Source: Candidatus Micrarchaeota archaeon
GTDB taxonomy: Archaea; Micrarchaeota; Micrarchaeia; Anstonellales; JAGGVH01
Length of the DNA: 64,000 nt
Assembly: GCA_020854835.1 (NCBI GenBank)
Contig: JAHKLX010000007.1
Location: forward strand, 36,044-100,043
Direction: 5' to 3'
The notes beneath the pieces are model-generated. The model was not told the origin of the DNA and made no database searches. It saw only the letters and a list, made by a program, of their open reading frames with translations. How positions within the stretch are numbered: the first letter of the stretch is position 1; each line of letters opens with the position of its first letter. This document shows, one piece after another, positions 40,150 to 64,000 of this stretch. The position numbers and the translations under genes were made by a program.

Positions 40150-40219
40150 GCCAGTATAAACACTGTTAATGCTTAAAAATGTTGTGAATGAATATACTCA
40201 AAATAAAAAGGTGATTTAT

Positions 40220-41380
40220 ATGTCTTCAAAGAAATATTATTTTACTTCAGAATCTGTAACCGAAGGTCATCCTGACAAAGTGTGTGATCAAATCTCAGAC
40301 GCCATTTTAGATGAGCTTTTAAAACAAGATCCAAAAACAAGATGCGCTGTTGAAACAGCAGTAACAACAGGCTTGGTAGTTGTTATGGGAGAAATAACAA
40401 CTAAAGGATATGCAGAATTTCAACAAATCGCAAGAAACACGATAAAAGAAATAGGTTATACAAAACCCGAATATCTTTTTGATTATCAATCATGTGGGGT
40501 TTTATCCTCTATTCATGAACAGTCTCCAGATATTTCAGAAATGGTTACTGAAGAGGGAGAGCATGAACAGGGTGCAGGAGACCAAGGAATTATGTTTGGG
40601 TTTGCAACAAATGAAACTCCCGAATTAATGCCATTGCCAATTGTTTTGGCACACAAACTTGCAATGAAATTAACAGAAGTCAGAAAAAACAATACATTGA
40701 AATATTTAAGACCAGATGGAAAAACACAGGTAACAATAGAATATGAAGGTGCGAAACCATTAAGGTGCCACACTGTTGTGGTTGGTGCACAGCACGATCC
40801 AGATGTTTCAGCTGAAAAAATTAGAAACGATATAATAGAACATGTTGTAAAACCAATCTGCGGAAAATGGTTTGATGAAAAAACATTAGTTTATGTGAAT
40901 GGGACTGGAAAATTTGTTTTGGGCGGACCTGCAGCAGATTCTGGAGTAACTGGAAGAAAAATCATAGTTGATACTTACGGAGGAAGAGGACATCATGGAG
41001 GGGGCGCATTCTCTGGAAAAGATCCTTCAAAAGTTGACCGTTCAGGATCATATATGGCGAGATATGTTGCAAAAAATATTGTTGCAGCAGGTTTAGCAGA
41101 ACAGTGTGAAGTTCAAATTTCCTACGTTATAGGTGTAGCAAAACCATTATCTGTTTTTGTTGATACAAGAGAAACAAACAAAATACCTGTTGAAAAGATT
41201 GAGGAATTGATTGAAAAAAACTTTTCTTTCAAGCCAAAAGACATAATAAAAAAACTAGATCTTTTAAGACCCATTTACAGAAAGACTTCTTCATATGGCC
41301 ATTTCGGAAGAAATGATGCTGATTTCACATGGGAAAACACAGATATGGCAGAGGAATTGAAAAAACAAGCAGGAATATAA
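40220..41380 (+). CDS. metK: S-adenosylmethionine synthetase, bacterial/eukaryotic type
   Basis: [35 protein letters not shown]; ATG after AGGTGA. Confidence 0.97.
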
Positions 41381-57648: not shown

Positions 57649-58443
57649 ATGACAGAAAAAGAAATTGAAGAAACCGACAACGCTGGAAATGAAACAAAAT
57701 CAAACCTGCTTCTCCCTCAGGAGAAATATCTTGAAGCAGGATGCCATATAGGAACAAAATTTAAAAATGGCAGTATGAAAGAATTCATTTACAGAAGAAG
57801 AAGAGATAGATTATTTGTTATGGATATATCTAAAATTGATGAACAGCTTAGAAAAGCTGCAGAAAAACTTGCAGAATATGAACCTAAAGATATTGTTGTT
57901 ACTGCAGTTAGGGCATATGCAAACGCAGCATCTTCCAAAATGAGTTTGATTTTGGGAACGAAAGTTATTTCAAAAAGATTTATCCCTGGAAGTTTCACAA
58001 ATACTCAGATCAAGTATTTTGTAGAACCGGAAATTCTTTTAGTTTGCGATCCAAAAGCCGAAGCCGAAGCTATTCGCGAAGCAAATATAATGAAGGTACC
58101 TGTAATTTCATTGGCAGACACTGAGAACGATACCAAAGGTATTGATGTTGTTATTCCTTGCAATAATAAAGGAAAAAGATCGCTTGCTCTTGTATTCTAC
58201 ATATTAACAAGAGAATATATGATGAAAAAAGGTATGATTAAAACATATTCTGACTTTAAATACAAACCAAGAGATTTTGAGGATTTAGATGCAGTTTCAG
58301 AATATGAACAATTTGTACAGGATGAAGAAACTGTTGAAACCCCTCCCGAAGAGGAAAAAAAGGTTGAAGAACCAGAACAAAAACCTGAAGCTCCTAAAGA
58401 GGAAAAAATAGTTAAAAAACGACAAACCAAAAAAAGAGATTAA
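57649..58443 (+). CDS. rps2: 30S ribosomal protein S2
   Basis: YLEAGCHIGTK, RFIPGSFTN, IPCNNKG. Confidence 0.96.
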   Translation: MTEKEIEETDNAGNETKSNLLLPQEKYLEAGCHIGTKFKNGSMKEFIYRRRRDRLFVMDISKIDEQLRKAAEKLAEYEPKDIVVTAVRAYANAASSKMSLILGTKVISKRFIPGSFTNTQIKYFVEPEILLVCDPKAEAEAIREANIMKVPVISLADTENDTKGIDVVIPCNNKGKRSLALVFYILTREYMMKKGMIKTYSDFKYKPRDFEDLDAVSEYEQFVQDEETVETPPEEEKKVEEPEQKPEAPKEEKIVKKRQTKKRD

Positions 58444-59531
58444 CCAAACATCTCTTTATTTTTCTTTTTCTCCCCTATTTTGTATTTGTTAGTACTGATT
58501 ACTGCCAATTTTCTTTTGTATGCTATTTCCATTAAAGGGTCAAGAGAAATTGCATGTTCATAAAGTTTTAGGGCTTCGTCAAATTTGTGCATATGTGATA
58601 AAATATCTCCTTTTCTAATGTGATAATGAGGATTTAAAGGATTGTGTTTTATTGCATTATCAATTTGCTTTAACGCATCCTTTGTTTTTCTAAGAATTAG
58701 CAAATACATGGATAAATCATAATAATAGTTTGGTTGTTTATTTAGTTTGATTGCTTGCTCACACAATTTAACTGCTTCATCAGGTTTTTGTATTGAATTT
58801 GCGAACTTGGCTTTTATCCATAAAAAACCTGCTTTTTCTTTGTCGGAATCAGAAAGTTGAATTGCTTTTGTTATTGTTTTGTATCCCTCTTCATAATTTT
58901 CAAGCTCCCAATAACATCTTGTTAAATAGTCGTAAAGCTCTGTGGATTCCTTGAATTTTTGAGCTTCTTTTAATATATCCAATGCACTTCTTGGTTCTTT
59001 GTTTTTTAGATGTTTTGATGCCGAATCCAAAAGAAATTTCAAAGGATCGATGACATCAGAGATAACCTCCGCAATTGACTTTCTTTTTTTAATCAATTGG
59101 GGGTGGCCAGGCATAATTTTTAAACCCTCCTCCACAACGTCCATTGCTTTTTTATAATCTCCCATAGCAATATGTATATTTGCCAAAACATCAAAAAGTT
59201 TTACATCGTTCGGAGATATTTTTTTTGCAGTTTCAACTGCTTCAATTGCTTCTTGGAATCTTTTTAAACGCACTAAAGCGAATGCTTTATTCGAATAAAA
59301 AAAGTGGGGAGTTGGTTTGTTGAATTTTTTGGATTCTTCAATAGCGGAACTATACATTTTTTCAGCAACTTCAGGGTTGTTTAAATTCATATAAACAATT
59401 CCTTTCATATTGTATATTTCAGGATCGTTTAAACCACATTCGTTCAAGAATTTTAAAGCTTCTTTAAATTCTTTTTTATCAAGATACGTATTAATCTGTT
59501 TCAAAACTTCTTTAACATCCATAAAACTCAC
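58440..59531 (-). CDS. Tetratricopeptide-repeat protein
   Basis: Multiple 34-aa TPR-like units (e.g. YHIRKGDILSHMHKFDEALKLYEHAISLDP). Confidence 0.9.
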   Translation of the reverse strand: MSFMDVKEVLKQINTYLDKKEFKEALKFLNECGLNDPEIYNMKGIVYMNLNNPEVAEKMYSSAIEESKKFNKPTPHFFYSNKAFALVRLKRFQEAIEAVETAKKISPNDVKLFDVLANIHIAMGDYKKAMDVVEEGLKIMPGHPQLIKKRKSIAEVISDVIDPLKFLLDSASKHLKNKEPRSALDILKEAQKFKESTELYDYLTRCYWELENYEEGYKTITKAIQLSDSDKEKAGFLWIKAKFANSIQKPDEAVKLCEQAIKLNKQPNYYYDLSMYLLILRKTKDALKQIDNAIKHNPLNPHYHIRKGDILSHMHKFDEALKLYEHAISLDPLMEIAYKRKLAVISTNKYKIGEKKKNKEMFG

Positions 59532-59536
59532 CCAAA

Positions 59537-60538
59537 TTATTCAAAAAATGAATAACACGATCTTTTCGAACTGTCAGAGCTTATTTTCGCGCAGTAGGTA
59601 TTATCGTTTTCCTGTTGAGATGCTTTTATATAACACTGGTCCCTCCAAGAATAATCTAGAATATTGTCACAATCTTCTACATCAATTTTTTCAGAAGTGT
59701 GAAGAACATAATTATAACAATTTAGTCTTTTTGAGGTAATTACATTATCACAGTATGACATTCTTCCAAATTTTACTGCAGGATTATAGTAACATGTAAA
59801 AGAATTTATATCTTTTATAAATAATTTATCGCATATGGATATATCTCCTGTTGCATCAACAAAACTTAGATAACATTCATCTTTATCTCCTGATTTAAGT
59901 GTTCTTTCACAATATTTAACATCCTTGGCGTTGATTGCCGAATAGGAATAACAATCAATTCTTAAACTTTTAATTTCTTTTATCATGTCACAGTATGCGT
60001 AATTGTTTGTGTAAAGCACAAAATGGTAGTAACACCTATCAGATACTCTATCAAAATTCGTATCCTCGCACACTAAACCATTATTATTTGCAATTGCTTT
60101 ACAGGATAAGCTTTGATATTCTAATGAAAACATATCACAAACGGTGTTGTCTCTAAAAGTTTTTGCATATTCTAAAACACATTCAAAATCATCTTTGCAA
60201 TAGGATACATCCTTTGTTTCTTTCATCATACAAATATCATATTCCGAATCTGTATATATATCACAAACATGAATATCAATAGGTTCTTCTTCATCTATTG
60301 TTTCGTTTACAAAATCGTCAACTTCAATATCATCATCTGCTATATCCTCATCAACTGTATTGTTGATAAGGGGATTTGTGGTGCCAAATCTAATATCCAT
60401 TTCTTCAGAGAATAATACTCCGACAATTAATAAAACTGCTAAAAATGCGACGGCAAGAACTACAAACGCACCTATGAAAAGTGGCCCTTTACCCAGGTTA
60501 TATTTGGCTCTTTGAACAGATTTTTTAACTTGCTTCAT
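59537..60538 (-). CDS. Membrane-anchored cysteine-rich repeat surface protein
   Basis: One TM, acidic linker, then ~26-aa repeats D.CY...A....D...C; start moved to MKQV to avoid overlap with the next gene. Confidence 0.75.
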   Translation of the reverse strand: MKQVKKSVQRAKYNLGKGPLFIGAFVVLAVAFLAVLLIVGVLFSEEMDIRFGTTNPLINNTVDEDIADDDIEVDDFVNETIDEEEPIDIHVCDIYTDSEYDICMMKETKDVSYCKDDFECVLEYAKTFRDNTVCDMFSLEYQSLSCKAIANNNGLVCEDTNFDRVSDRCYYHFVLYTNNYAYCDMIKEIKSLRIDCYSYSAINAKDVKYCERTLKSGDKDECYLSFVDATGDISICDKLFIKDINSFTCYYNPAVKFGRMSYCDNVITSKRLNCYNYVLHTSEKIDVEDCDNILDYSWRDQCYIKASQQENDNTYCAKISSDSSKRSCYSFFE

Positions 60539-60617
60539 GTTTCTAATCTCATAAGTAAAATTTAAAAATCTATCCTGTGTTAGAACAAATACATAAATAC
60601 TCATATGAGGTGGTAAA

Positions 60618-61148
60618 ATGGATATAGTCGGAACAATAAAAGAGGGTTTTGACAGATCTATCAAAGATATTGTAAAAACAATAGTAATGTTTGTAGGAAT
60701 GTATATCCCTTTGGTTAATTTTTGGGCAATGGGGTATATGTTAGATGTTGTTCAAACAACCAAGAAAAAGACAATGCCAGATTTTAACTGGGTCCATCAA
60801 TTCATTGAAGGAATAAAAACCACAGTGATATTGTTGATCTATATAGTCATTGGTGTTGTTTTAACTATGGTTCTCGGTATTGTGGGAGCAATGTTAGATC
60901 CTATGATTGGAATGGTTTTAGGTTTAATTGGTATGGTTTTATCAATCCTCCTGACATTAATGGGTTTTGTAGGAGTTATGAAATATGCTATGTCAAGAAA
61001 ATTCGGGGATGGATTTGCTATCATGGCAATCATAAAAAGAATCATAAGTGTTGATTTCATTGTTACATTAATAATCAGCATTTTAGGAATGATTCCAATA
61101 ATCGGTCCTGTTATGACAGCAACATTCTGGGGCAAATTAGATTATTAA
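60618..61148 (+). CDS. DUF4013-like membrane protein
   Basis: IPLVNFWAMGY...MPDF.W...FIEG pattern, several TM helices. Confidence 0.75.
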   Translation: MDIVGTIKEGFDRSIKDIVKTIVMFVGMYIPLVNFWAMGYMLDVVQTTKKKTMPDFNWVHQFIEGIKTTVILLIYIVIGVVLTMVLGIVGAMLDPMIGMVLGLIGMVLSILLTLMGFVGVMKYAMSRKFGDGFAIMAIIKRIISVDFIVTLIISILGMIPIIGPVMTATFWGKLDY

Positions 61149-61230
61149 TTTCCCTTTTTTATTTTTTTATTTTTTAATTGGAAAACTACTCTTGTTAGTT
61201 ATTTAAATTAAACTATTTTTTAATTTTTTT

Positions 61231-62235
61231 ATGCATAAAGCTGTAAATTTGCCCTTACATCCTGGAAAAGCACCAAGATGGTTGTTAACACGAATGGTTG
61301 AATTGTCAACTGTAATAACCAAATATATTGTTGATGAAAAAGGAACAGAAGAGTTTTTGAAAAGACTATCTGATCCAAACTGGTTTCAAGCCTTGGGGTG
61401 TGTTTTGGGATTTGATTGGCATTCTTCTGGATTAACGACTACAACAACTGGAGCTTTGAAAGAAGCTTTAAAAAAAATAAATCAAAAAGGAAATATTGGT
61501 TTGTGGTGCGCAGGAGGAAAAGGAAGAAATTCTATAAAAACCCCTGAGGATATAGCAAGTTTTTGTAAAAACACAAATTTGGATACGGAACAATTGATAG
61601 GTGCAAGCAAATTGATAGCAAAAATAGATAATTCTTGTATTCAAGACGGTTTTTCCTTATATCATCACTGCTTTTTCTTCAATGAGCAGGGTAAATACTC
61701 TATTGTCCAACAGGGAATGGGTGGCAAATGGGCACGAAGATACCATTGGTTTTGTCCCCCAGAGTGGTTCAACGAACAAGAAAAAGTTTCATGCGATAAA
61801 AAAATAGAAAATGTGTTGAATCTTGTTTCAACAAAGAGCAAAATAAATAGGGAAAATGGATTGATTATCGTTAGGGAATTACCCGAACACCATATGATTT
61901 TAAAAAAGTTTCTCAAAGATAAAGAAATTAATTTATTGAAGAGCCTGTATGAAATACAACCTGAGAAATATGAGGAATTGCTCATGTTTAGGGGTTTTGG
62001 ACCAAAAAAAATCAGAGCTTTGGCTTTGACATCAAAAATAATCTTTGGGGCTGAAGCAGACTGGCAAGACCCTGTGAAATATGCGTTCGCCCATGGTGGA
62101 AAAGACGGAATACCTTTTCCAGTTGAAAGAGGCATATACGATGACAATATATCCCTAATAAAAGAAGCTCTTGAAAAAAAGAATAGGGGAAATGAAACTA
62201 TACACCGAGCTTTGATAAAGTTGGGAAAGTTGTAA
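61231..62235 (+). CDS. DUF763 family protein
   Basis: LPLH.GKAPRWL, GFDWHSSG.TT, QDGF.LYHH, FAHGGKDG.PFPV. Confidence 0.9.
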   Translation: MHKAVNLPLHPGKAPRWLLTRMVELSTVITKYIVDEKGTEEFLKRLSDPNWFQALGCVLGFDWHSSGLTTTTTGALKEALKKINQKGNIGLWCAGGKGRNSIKTPEDIASFCKNTNLDTEQLIGASKLIAKIDNSCIQDGFSLYHHCFFFNEQGKYSIVQQGMGGKWARRYHWFCPPEWFNEQEKVSCDKKIENVLNLVSTKSKINRENGLIIVRELPEHHMILKKFLKDKEINLLKSLYEIQPEKYEELLMFRGFGPKKIRALALTSKIIFGAEADWQDPVKYAFAHGGKDGIPFPVERGIYDDNISLIKEALEKKNRGNETIHRALIKLGKL

Positions 62236-62304
62236 TAATGTGTACAAAGGTTTATAAACATAAATACACATTAATTAACATAGTATAACATAAAGGTGAC
62301 ACCC

Positions 62305-63357
62305 ATGAAAATGCAAAGATTAATAAAATATCCATTCGGCGAAAAGCCAAATTCAAAAAGCATTAGGTGCAGCCCTCCCGATGATATCTCTGTTAAACCT
62401 GGCAGTATTGTAAAAAATTATGTCGATAATGAAAAAAGCATTGCTGGAGAAATTAGAAATTTAAAAGAAAATGAGAGAAAGTTTAGTAAAGACCATACTG
62501 TGCTTGCCAATTTAGAAATTGATTCACCAGAAATTCAAAGAATAATGGGCGAATTTAAAGAAGGTATTGAAAATAATGAAAATAGGGTCGAAAGATTAAG
62601 AGAGATTATTGGTTCAAATATTGAAATAGCGATGAATGCACTTTATGATAAGAGGATGGAATTGTGGAAAAAAGAAGCACAAAGGGAATTTATTGTTCCG
62701 TTTTTTGGAAAAGAAGGCAGAGTCCCATATCCTTTCAACACTATATTTCCAACAAGTTGCATTAGTGAACATACAATCGCTTTCTTAGATGTTGATTACT
62801 TGAAAAAAATTAATGATCAGAAAGGTCACATATATGCAGATATGGTTTTAAGACAAATATATAAAACAATTAATTTAGTTGCCAAAGAATATGATGGAAT
62901 GGCATTTAGATATGGTGGTGACGAAGTTATTGTTTGGTTTATGTGTGACGTAGAAAAAGCTGAAAAAGCAATTGTTGAAATGAGGAGAAGAATAGCAGAA
63001 ATTGAGGTAGATAAATACTTTTTAGATTGTGGCACAAATAGAACATATATCACCTTATCTGCAGGATTAACAAAAATTAATGGAACTTTTGAAAGAACTT
63101 TGGATATTGCCGATAAATTATTATACAGATCAAAAGACGGCAATGAAGATGTCGCAGGCAGAGATTGTATAACCATAAACAATATAAAAATTGATAATCT
63201 AACTGAAGAAGATATGGAAAGATGGACACCTGTGAAATTTAAGGAATATATTGATTACCAAAACCTGGAAAGAAAATATGCGGTTGTAATGAAAGATGAA
63301 AAACCTGTTTTAATAGATAAAGAAACAAATGAGGTTTTGGATATTTTAGAAGATTAA
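62305..63357 (+). CDS. GGDEF-domain (diguanylate cyclase-like) protein
   Basis: FLDVDYLKKINDQKGHIYAD, FRYGGDEV, TLSAG, ADKLLY.SK...GRD; TTTATAAA at 62251 and AGGTGA SD. Confidence 0.88.
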   Translation: MKMQRLIKYPFGEKPNSKSIRCSPPDDISVKPGSIVKNYVDNEKSIAGEIRNLKENERKFSKDHTVLANLEIDSPEIQRIMGEFKEGIENNENRVERLREIIGSNIEIAMNALYDKRMELWKKEAQREFIVPFFGKEGRVPYPFNTIFPTSCISEHTIAFLDVDYLKKINDQKGHIYADMVLRQIYKTINLVAKEYDGMAFRYGGDEVIVWFMCDVEKAEKAIVEMRRRIAEIEVDKYFLDCGTNRTYITLSAGLTKINGTFERTLDIADKLLYRSKDGNEDVAGRDCITINNIKIDNLTEEDMERWTPVKFKEYIDYQNLERKYAVVMKDEKPVLIDKETNEVLDILED

Positions 63358-63825
63358 TCATTTTTTGCTTGCAGAATATGAAGCATAAACTTCTTTCATA
63401 TTGTCAAAAATACTGTCCAAATTTGAATCTATCTTTTTTCTTAAAGATTGAATAGGATCATTGGTCAAATTTCCTTTTATCCAGGTATATTGTCTTTTTT
63501 TACGTTCAATTAAACCTATTTTTAAAAGACGAGTGAGATGATACCTGGTTGCTTTATCAATTTTTTTTATTTCGTCTTTGGCTTTTGCTTTTTGAATTTT
63601 ACAAACATCTTCAACAATCTGCTCAGATGTAAATGGGAAATCCATATTTTTTAAAATTGATTCCAGAACATCTAAAACTAATGTCCTTGACTCGCCTGGA
63701 GAAATCAAACCCAAACTTAAAGCCAACCAACGAATTTGTTTTTGTTTTGAAAGCTTGACATCAGGAGGTAGAACTAAATCCCGTATTAAAATTTCGCTTT
63801 TAACTAGTTCAGATTCAGGAATCAT
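63358..63825 (-). CDS. Winged-helix domain protein
   Basis: WLALSLGL..., TSEQI..., TRYHLTRLLKIGLIER. Confidence 0.7.
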   Translation of the reverse strand: MIPESELVKSEILIRDLVLPPDVKLSKQKQIRWLALSLGLISPGESRTLVLDVLESILKNMDFPFTSEQIVEDVCKIQKAKAKDEIKKIDKATRYHLTRLLKIGLIERKKRQYTWIKGNLTNDPIQSLRKKIDSNLDSIFDNMKEVYASYSASKK

Positions 63826-63865
63826 AAGCTTATTTTAAAAATAATGTTTAAAAACATATCTAAAA

Positions 63866-64000
63866 CTATTTTAGAATTTTACCGGTTTCCATATACCACA
63901 AATACAAATCTAATTCTGCTAAATTCAAACCTGTTGCTTTCGCAAGTTTCCTTAAAACATCTTCAATTTCTAAATATTTTTTCTTGTTTAGATTTTTTGG
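63866..64000 (-). CDS. ogg: 8-oxoguanine DNA glycosylase/AP lyase (Ogg2 type), C-terminal end
   Basis: Manual translation ...KKYLEIE...LAELDLYLWYMETGKILK-stop, the characteristic Ogg2 C-terminus. Confidence 0.85.
   Translation of the reverse strand, partial: PKNLNKKKYLEIEDVLRKLAKATGLNLAELDLYLWYMETGKILK

Follow-up and report, generated by a model that had tools for sequence, protein, structure and literature searches.

Does this archaeal locus encode a diguanylate cyclase, and does the enzyme belong to the archaeon itself? The question arises from a gene near the end of the stretch analysed here, 64,000 nucleotides of a Candidatus Micrarchaeota contig (referred to as the window in this text). 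The gene encodes a protein with a GGDEF domain, the domain of the enzymes that make cyclic di-GMP (c-di-GMP), and this protein is called P0001 below. Judged by its sequence, P0001 appears to be a real, native diguanylate cyclase of a small-genome DPANN archaeon, and it is probably active.

An earlier note on this DNA had called c-di-GMP signalling essentially bacterial. That view is outdated, since archaeal GGDEF hits (PMC8646023) and cyclase activity (PMC13725321) are in print. Braun et al. (2021) list more than 300 archaeal GGDEF BLAST hits, many of them in Asgard and DPANN archaea (PMC8646023), and Galperin et al. (2018) describe regulators with a receiver (REC) and an inactivated GGDEF domain in Ca. 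Micrarchaeum, the origin of which they doubt (PMC5847659). Using Salmonella and E. coli as assay hosts, Sidorov et al. (2026, Mol Microbiol) tested GGDEF proteins of archaeal isolates and of archaeal metagenome-assembled genomes (MAGs) and report diguanylate cyclase activity, for MAG proteins too (PMC13725321). They picked 20 such proteins from MAGs, most of them of DPANN and class II clades; seven of these were tested, and three gave a signal in a riboswitch assay (PMC13725321). In that paper archaeal occurrence is called 'occasional', a systematic survey is said to be lacking, and co-occurrence with EAL or HD-GYP domains, phosphodiesterases and receptors are named as open questions (PMC13725321). 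P0001 is a divergent further example of these already reported and partly tested archaeal GGDEF genes (PMC13725321), and because the kind is in print, the gene alone leaves the overall picture unchanged.

The GGDEF domain and its residues

The coding sequence and the parts of the protein lie as follows:

62305..63357, plus strand: coding sequence of the GGDEF protein P0001, 350 residues (alternative GTG start at 62296)
62404..62703, plus strand: N-terminal helical stalk and predicted homodimer interface, residues 34-133; no known family, no Pfam match
62770..63141, plus strand: Pfam-matched GGDEF catalytic core, residues 156-279 (the structural domain covers about 113-307)
63181..63354, plus strand: C-terminal extension, a small alpha/beta module, residues 293-350 (AlphaFold2 confidence about 80-93)

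The sole Pfam domain of P0001 is PF00990 (GGDEF): residues 156-279 match positions 33-157 of the 161 in the profile, with 58.3 bits for a cut-off of 23.8 (E 1e-15). The TIGR00254 model also clears its cut-off (37.4 bits) with 61.3 bits, and 41 solved GGDEF chains match by sequence at E <= 0.001, with DosC (4zve, 5.5e-10) as the best. The equivalog models of NCBIfam all score far under their cut-offs (SiaD, the second-best match, reaches 68.4 bits for a cut-off of 290), and P0001 is therefore not an orthologue of any named bacterial cyclase.

The key residues of P0001 are D162, N170, D179, R202, the GGDEV of residues 204-208 and K277. All motifs that had been quoted in the earlier note are present in the translation: LDVD at residues 161-164 (nt 62785-62796), the guanine-binding motif NDQKGHIYAD at residues 170-179, and RYGGDEV at residues 202-208 (nt 62908-62928), so that the active-site hairpin is there together with its preceding Arg (R202-Y-G-G-D-E-V208). 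We take D162, N170 and D179 to be the counterparts of PleD D327, N335 and D344, the metal-binding Asp and the guanine-binding Asn and Asp. When P0001 is aligned with a varied set of GGDEF proteins (74 rows in all), D162, D164, N170, D179, G205 and E207 are invariant, and K167, R202, G204 and K277 stand in near-invariant columns. A 7-row alignment of the P0001 family, whose members are mutually just 25–50% identical overall, has D162, D164, K167, N170, D179 and the GGDE of residues 204-207 invariant, and the D/N/D/GG[DE]E pattern is kept in all six family rows. As far as sequence can tell, P0001 carries every residue that a diguanylate cyclase ('class I' GGDEF as used in PMC13725321, section 2.4) needs for catalysis and for specifying guanine, with the placement of one Arg needing a 5-residue insertion (discussed below).

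Since these residues are present and conserved in the family, c-di-GMP synthesis is the most likely activity. The earlier note had left the choice between c-di-GMP and another cyclic dinucleotide. Of these two, the first is favoured by the residues, while the second is disfavoured: D179 occupies the base-specifying position and is an Asp in six of six family rows, whereas in the GGDEF domains that make cyclic GMP-AMP (cGAMP; Hypr) the Asp of the xxGD motif is replaced by Ser (PMC13725321, section 2.4). The same note had reported that an RxxD inhibitory site (I-site) is absent, and rightly so. At the I-site position, five residues before GG(D/E)EF, P0001 has no RxxD; a KEYD found there is one residue out of register, and it is not kept in the closest homologue, which has KYGG instead.

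GGDEF domains fold into a palm-like core of the order beta-alpha-alpha-beta-beta-alpha-beta. The AlphaFold2 (AF2) model of P0001 has a predicted local distance difference test score (pLDDT) of 79 overall and above 90 in the core, with a predicted template modelling score (pTM) of 0.72. Foldseek matched this model to DosC (4zvf, E 2.3e-9, template modelling score about 0.68 when normalised by target length). With VIA-align it matched SadC (4wxw) at Z 14.9 (root-mean-square deviation (rmsd) 2.9 Å, 157 of 165 residues aligned, model residues 116-306), DosC (4zvf) at Z 14.8 (3.1 Å, 160 of 164 residues) and many other GGDEF domains at Z 14–15 (151–160 residues, 2.4–3.4 Å). The palms of Cas10 and of class III cyclases reach Z values of about 13.5–14.1. 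These ranges are so close that Z alone does not separate GGDEF domains from such palms; the sequence models do separate them.

The N-terminal region, which the earlier note had taken for a coiled coil, is indeed predicted to form long helices over residues 34-133 (34-62, 64-69, 75-90, 92-120 and 123-133 in the AF2 model). A homodimer prediction for P0001 scored 0.52, compared with 0.00 for the best of three controls, and placed the interface at residues 34-124; the contacts agreed by at least 97% among three runs, all with pLDDT of 83 or more. The mark applied to homodimers is reached by 20 of 30 solved homo-pairs and by 1 of 23 single chains. The prediction supports a P0001 homodimer, and the pass may partly reflect likeness, because solved cyclases with coiled-coil stalks exist. 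For example, SiaD (7e6g), DgcB (6ttr) and WspR (3i5c, 3bre) have, like P0001, a helical or coiled-coil stalk directly before the GGDEF domain, and dimerisation of the stalk positions their half-sites, as is predicted for P0001. The P0001 model aligned with 7e6g at Z 14.5 (189 residues, model residues 85-300), with 6ttr at Z 14.2 (179 residues) and with 3i5c at Z 14.7 (186 residues). In contrast to these proteins, P0001 has no receiver domain, no RxxD I-site and a stalk without known family, and it is an equivalog of none of them.

The best solved match of P0001, by sequence and by Foldseek alike, is the GGDEF domain of E. coli DosC/DgcO (4zve, 4zvf), although the identity is just about 24–28% and P0001 lacks the globin sensor. 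The archaeal proteins of Sidorov et al. resemble it in their archaeal gene flanks, in an intact GG(D/E)EF motif (GGDEV in P0001) with signature residues, and in an Asp, not Ser, in xxGD; as in P0001, the regions that flank their domain are often just short or undefined (PMC13725321). It is set apart from them by description, and a relative could be among their 20 (PMC13725321). Its own features are the lack of a recognisable DxLT, the GGDEV motif, the 5-residue insertion before the last Arg and N- and C-terminal regions specific to the genus. The regulators of Ca. Micrarchaeum share with P0001 a GGDEF-type domain in Micrarchaeota, but they are described as inactivated and as fused to a receiver, whereas P0001 has no receiver and keeps the catalytic residues (PMC5847659). 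The C-terminal extension is common in full only to the closest homologue among the tails compared, and an Atlas search with this tail gave no usable match.

Native location and relatives

The window corresponds to positions 36044-100043 of the source contig (C30; 103 kb, 32.7% guanine plus cytosine (GC)), and its composition is flat throughout. About 5 kb upstream of the GGDEF gene lies an archaeal cluster of ribosomal-protein and RNA-polymerase genes, of the order S13-S4-S11-RpoD-(unassigned open reading frame (ORF))-L13-S9, then a tRNA and S2. Three tRNA matches were found in the window, two of which (96 and 122 nt) are read as intron-bearing, as well as one 5S rRNA. The immediate surroundings of the gene are these:

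61231..62235, plus strand: upstream neighbour, DUF763 protein (Pfam PF05559, 363.7 bits), adjacent in the congeneric genome G001 too and absent at the locus of G002
62251..62258, plus strand: TTTATAAA, candidate archaeal TATA box some 46 nt upstream of the ATG
62294..62299, plus strand: AGGTGA, Shine-Dalgarno-like site, 5 nt before ATG 62305
63358..63825, minus strand: downstream convergent neighbour, winged-helix-like (wHTH) protein of 155 residues, no Pfam family

The gene order is kept within the genus. In G001, the orthologue (365 aa, 48% identical) lies between the DUF763 gene and the convergent wHTH gene, and in G002 the orthologue (32% identity, 376 aa, with RRGGDEI and AKLKGRN) stands between a DUF4013 gene and the wHTH gene. 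The wHTH gene thus adjoins the GGDEF gene in all three genomes of the genus. Its named relatives are labelled as Candidatus Micrarchaeota, Diapherotrites or Bilamarchaeaceae archaeon, and the host probably is a DPANN archaeon by these protein matches.

We could also observe the locus in six sludge metagenome runs. Contigs of 9,312 nt span positions 58000-64000 in runs X1 and X4, which are possibly source samples. Run X5, not flagged as a source, has a 2,496-nt contig that covers 60498-62993 and so crosses the junctions between the DUF4013, DUF763 and GGDEF genes. No assembly joints at the locus were reported in any of four runs, and no RNA datasets holding it are listed. The earlier note had judged contamination unlikely from the archaeal genes around; the archaeal markers, the congeneric gene order and the independent contig all agree with it, and the chimeric assembly that it named as a refutation was not seen, with the X5 contig bridging the upstream junction. 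Contamination or chimerism of the locus is very unlikely, and the GGDEF gene is native to this archaeal genome.

The source bin is 87% complete with a contamination estimate of 5.6%. It is composite: 30 contigs of 30–35% GC make up about 1.2 Mb of it, and another 114, mostly small and of 36–53% GC, add about 0.84 Mb. The other two genomes of the genus measure 1.0 and 1.2 Mb. The GGDEF gene is located on the core part (30–35% GC), and statements on presence or absence in the whole bin, as made below, need care because of its composite nature.

The ORF of the gene ends with the stop codon at 63355-63357 and could begin at GTG 62296 or at ATG 62305. We chose the ATG, since the AGGTGA ends 5 nt before it. 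An archaeal promoter and a ribosome-binding site had both been proposed in the earlier note, and both motifs are present. The second is backed by position: AGGTGA is mildly enriched in the window (35 matches, 24.4 expected; 3 of 100 shuffles reach 35), and at least 10 of the 35 sites fall 4–8 nt before listed ORF starts, so that it looks like the usual ribosome-binding site of this organism, and the GGDEF gene looks like a user of the ordinary translation signal of its genome. The promoter, however, gains nothing from enrichment. With 13 matches in the window for 9.2 expected, and 14 of 100 shuffles reaching 13, TTTATAAA is compatible with a promoter and is not evidence for one.

Full-length relatives of P0001 are rare. 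Among 5.8 billion clustered proteins there is one besides P0001 itself, P0003 (46% identity), and an exhaustive search added four further relatives (P0020-P0023). The N-terminal 155 residues are clearly found only in the three genomes of the genus among 401 sampled from the phylum, with two extra matches of 18–22 bits in ORFs of about 185 aa. For a phylogeny, 118 of 411 distinct domain sequences were retained after clustering and caps (5 of the family, 54 archaeal, 29 named bacterial and 30 unnamed; 140 columns, quick IQ-TREE), with the partial P0020 left out. The family forms one clade, supported at 97 in the Shimodaira–Hasegawa-like approximate likelihood ratio test (SH-aLRT), and nests in no archaeal or bacterial group. 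Several clades of the tree are purely archaeal, while the GGDEF-EAL proteins of the order group with bacterial ones (SH-aLRT 99), and the backbone is open, as are 66 of the 115 inner branches in all. The best identity of P0001 outside its family is about 39%. By sequence comparison, its architecture is restricted to the genus and its family is a well-supported separate and divergent lineage. The phylogeny that the earlier note called for thus separates the family clearly, but it does not tell vertical descent from an old transfer.

We noticed further genes in the window. Upstream of the GGDEF gene lie a Cys-rich membrane-anchored protein (59537-60664, minus strand) and a DUF4013 membrane protein (60618-61148, plus strand), a pair that precedes the GGDEF gene in G002 too. 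An S-adenosylmethionine synthetase at 40169-41380 (plus strand) matches the bacterial/eukaryotic MetK domains PF00438, PF02772 and PF02773. Most archaea use a methionine adenosyltransferase of another type.

A candidate phosphodiesterase, a proposed mechanism and its alternatives

The gene for P0001 is the single GGDEF gene that profile searches found in the source genome (87% complete), and EAL, PilZ and MshEN were not found there by the same kind of search. The earlier note had seen no EAL, HD-GYP or PilZ gene in the window. This holds for the window itself (EAL, PilZ and HD_5-type), but the genome-wide check that it had recommended for these domains and MshEN did yield a candidate HD-GYP phosphodiesterase on another contig:

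C10:9346-10194 of the source genome (L002:1303-2151): candidate HD-GYP phosphodiesterase, 282 residues, HD_5 match

Contig C10 is 130 kb long with 32.4% GC, and the gene adjoins that of a threonyl-tRNA synthetase with an archaea-specific editing domain. The candidate is the one HD_5 match of the source genome (27.5 bits in the genome search and 29.2 for the protein, cut-off 27.2) and shows the motifs VHDIGK, HHHERWDG and GYP. Among solved structures it is closest to the c-di-GMP phosphodiesterase PA4781 (4r8z, 2.9e-7), and it also weakly resembles the cGAMP-specific HD-GYP enzyme 5z7c (E 1.8e-4). G001 carries an orthologue with 43% identity. From these matches, the protein is likely the phosphodiesterase partner of P0001.

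A c-di-GMP-I riboswitch (RF01051) matched the source genome with 76.3 bits at C34:2783-2870 and was set aside. The contig measures 4.8 kb at 44% GC and holds bacterial-looking ORFs, judged by eye to encode a sigma-70 region 4, the N-terminus of ClpB and transposases of the IS200 type; it probably is a bacterial contaminant. Across the order, RF01051 occurs in 2 of 151 genomes (none of 62 high-quality ones), the second match lying on a 1.7-kb contig, and the RF01786 riboswitch model gave no match. The use for pili, attachment or manipulation of a partner cell that the earlier note had imagined found no backing, as nothing was found that links the gene to these.

We propose, with somewhat better than even confidence, that P0001 is a homodimeric diguanylate cyclase joined by its N-terminal helical stalk and making c-di-GMP. 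Two chains would pair through their N-terminal helices (about residues 34-124) to form a dimeric stalk, and this pairing would bring two GGDEF domains together. Each domain would bind one GTP: N170 and D179 would recognise the guanine, D162 and D206/E207 would coordinate Mg2+, and K277 and probably R286 would bind the phosphates. The paired domains would then condense the two GTP molecules to c-di-GMP. Without RxxD, P0001 would have no site for product inhibition. The HD-GYP protein on C10 would be the likely phosphodiesterase, and the receptors of c-di-GMP would be of types other than PilZ, MshEN or riboswitches.

Several observations weigh against this proposal. The motif of P0001 is GGDEV and not GGDEF (Phe to Val), and in the family this position is V, I or F, with Val or Ile in four of seven rows. 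To reach the phosphate-binding Arg, a 5-residue insertion has to be assumed (K277...G285-R286-D287): in SKDGNEDVAGRD the Arg comes 9 residues after K277, not 4, and MAFFT sets a 5-residue insertion relative to the AKLKGRN of a family member. We take this Arg to be the equivalent of PleD R446, and PleD K442 to be the Lys of AKxxGRN. Positions 1-32 of the Pfam profile, with the DxLT wide turn, are unmatched in P0001, and no DxLT precedes beta-1. This turn and the first helix align in the predicted structure only (from about residue 113), and the structural presence of the domain start would rest on a model built with canonical GGDEF proteins in its alignment. Where the DxLT start would be, the family instead conserves E-x-I-x-PFFGK-x-G-x-VP-x-P-x-N. 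DxLT is the N-terminal wide turn of GGDEF domains (Schirmer 2016, cited in PMC13725321, section 2.4), and the start that bears it is a non-catalytic feature. As for the partner, the HD_5 score of the C10 candidate is borderline, a 12-residue insertion separates its HHERWDG from GYP, and no orthologue was found in G002 (84% complete). Known c-di-GMP receptor types (PilZ, MshEN, riboswitch) were not found in the source genome, where the sole RF01051 match lies on the probable contaminant. In addition, when seven archaeal-MAG proteins were tested, the most sensitive assay detected a cyclase signal for just three, and no protein behaved consistently in all three assays (PMC13725321). This rate means that intact motifs do not guarantee activity.

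It is possible, then, that the GGDEF domain was kept for a non-catalytic role, such as GTP binding or a protein–protein scaffold, with no cyclic dinucleotide product in the cell. Several archaeal-MAG GGDEF proteins caused Salmonella phenotypes that were independent of the catalytic motif, and just three of seven gave a signal in the riboswitch assay (PMC13725321, section 2.13); both the strongly diverged N-terminal part of the domain and the Val or Ile for Phe in four of seven family rows would fit. However, the metal-, base- and phosphate-binding residues are conserved across members of 25–50% identity, as under selection for catalysis; there is no I-site with which the domain could bind c-di-GMP as a receptor; and a candidate degrading enzyme is kept by two of the genus's three genomes. 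We therefore regard a non-catalytic role as unlikely. An active cyclase could also have a main product other than c-di-GMP, for example 3'3'-cGAMP or c-di-AMP, as Hypr GGDEF enzymes do. The domain is an outlier in the tree, the C10 candidate weakly resembles the cGAMP-specific 5z7c, and specificity may vary in the phylum, where seven GGDEF domains have Asn at the base-specifying position. Against this stand N170 and the Asp at D179, kept by P0001 and six of six family rows, where the signature of cGAMP makers is Ser for that Asp (PMC13725321, section 2.4); such a product seems quite improbable to us.

Finally, the gene might be foreign to the archaeon, through bacterial contamination, chimeric assembly or a transfer from bacteria in very recent times. 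The bin is visibly contaminated (contigs of 36–53% GC, 5.6% estimate), and the GGDEF-EAL proteins of the order do group with bacterial ones (SH-aLRT 99). Yet this gene sits on a 103-kb contig of 32.7% GC among archaeal markers and matches its surroundings in composition. It has the usual AGGTGA site of the genome in front of it and a gene order that is kept in two other species of the genus, and its upstream junction is bridged in an independent run. Its clade is its own (SH-aLRT 97), without nesting in a bacterial group and with a best outside identity of about 39%. A foreign origin of this kind is hardly credible. If the proposed cyclase is active, P0001 would be an unusually clean case for archaeal c-di-GMP signalling, being native and single-copy with a candidate phosphodiesterase in the same genome.

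Distribution in the order and phylum

Of the order's 176 genomes, 77 have a PF00990 match over the cut-off (28 of the 63 of high quality), very unevenly by family (64 of 99 in f8, 1 of 42 in f6). In the phylum, 152 of the 401 sampled genomes have one (84 of 188 high-quality ones; 171 of the 401 at E <= 0.001), with up to four matches per genome; G195, which is unpublished, counts here as a single positive and underlies no other claim. By these counts, GGDEF is far commoner in the phylum than the 'occasional' occurrence stated in print. A literature search on Micrarchaeota diguanylate cyclases and DPANN c-di-GMP brought up no paper (PMC9938205 was among the results) that counts GGDEF across the phylum.

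Other domains of the pathway were counted in the order as well: HD_5 is over its cut-off in 29 of 176 genomes, EAL occurs in 3 and PilZ in 1. These numbers point to HD-GYP as the enzyme that usually degrades the signal, and to receptors of another type. GGDEF is present in 21 of the 29 genomes with HD_5, compared with 77 of 176 overall (Fisher p 7e-4, a value that is overstated because related genomes are not independent). The counts of GGDEF, EAL, HD_5 and PilZ bear on the open questions of Sidorov et al. (2026) about frequency, EAL/HD-GYP co-occurrence and receptors, and together with the candidate HD-GYP pairing they are more useful by-products than the P0001 gene itself. Tentatively, and with more doubt than confidence, we suggest that the genus might run a minimal c-di-GMP circuit that diverges from bacterial ones, with a stalk-dimerised cyclase that has a rebuilt start and no product inhibition, one HD-GYP enzyme and novel receptor classes. 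It would be one branch of a phylum-wide, possibly ancient GGDEF signalling in Micrarchaeota-like DPANN archaea.

We fetched 66 archaeal GGDEF domains, a biased sample of mostly best-scoring matches. The D/N/D/GG[DE]E pattern is kept in 56 of them, seven have Asn in place of the base-specifying Asp, and three are degenerate. The seven with Asn (L010, L027, L137, L138, L149, L152 and L153, all of family f8) keep GG[DE]EF and the metal ligands. Going by the residue, Asn at the guanine-specifying position may indicate a different substrate preference.

The wHTH neighbour was considered as a dedicated GGDEF partner and rejected as specific, since it is a near-universal core gene: 155 of the order's 176 genomes have it, and so do 61 of the 63 of high quality. 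Three genomes of two other families (G003, G011 and G019) have a GGDEF gene with a GAF-like part convergent on the same wHTH gene, and the N-terminal domains differ. Altogether, a GGDEF gene stands convergent beside the wHTH gene in three families (f1, f2 and f10), and this repeated adjacency could be an old shared position or chance. Weak GGDEF-like matches of 19–25 bits were also seen in related genomes, inside giant open frames of 3,377–5,706 residues (G109:C4:25718-25996, G035:C5:46489-46827 and G076:C13:17867-18238).

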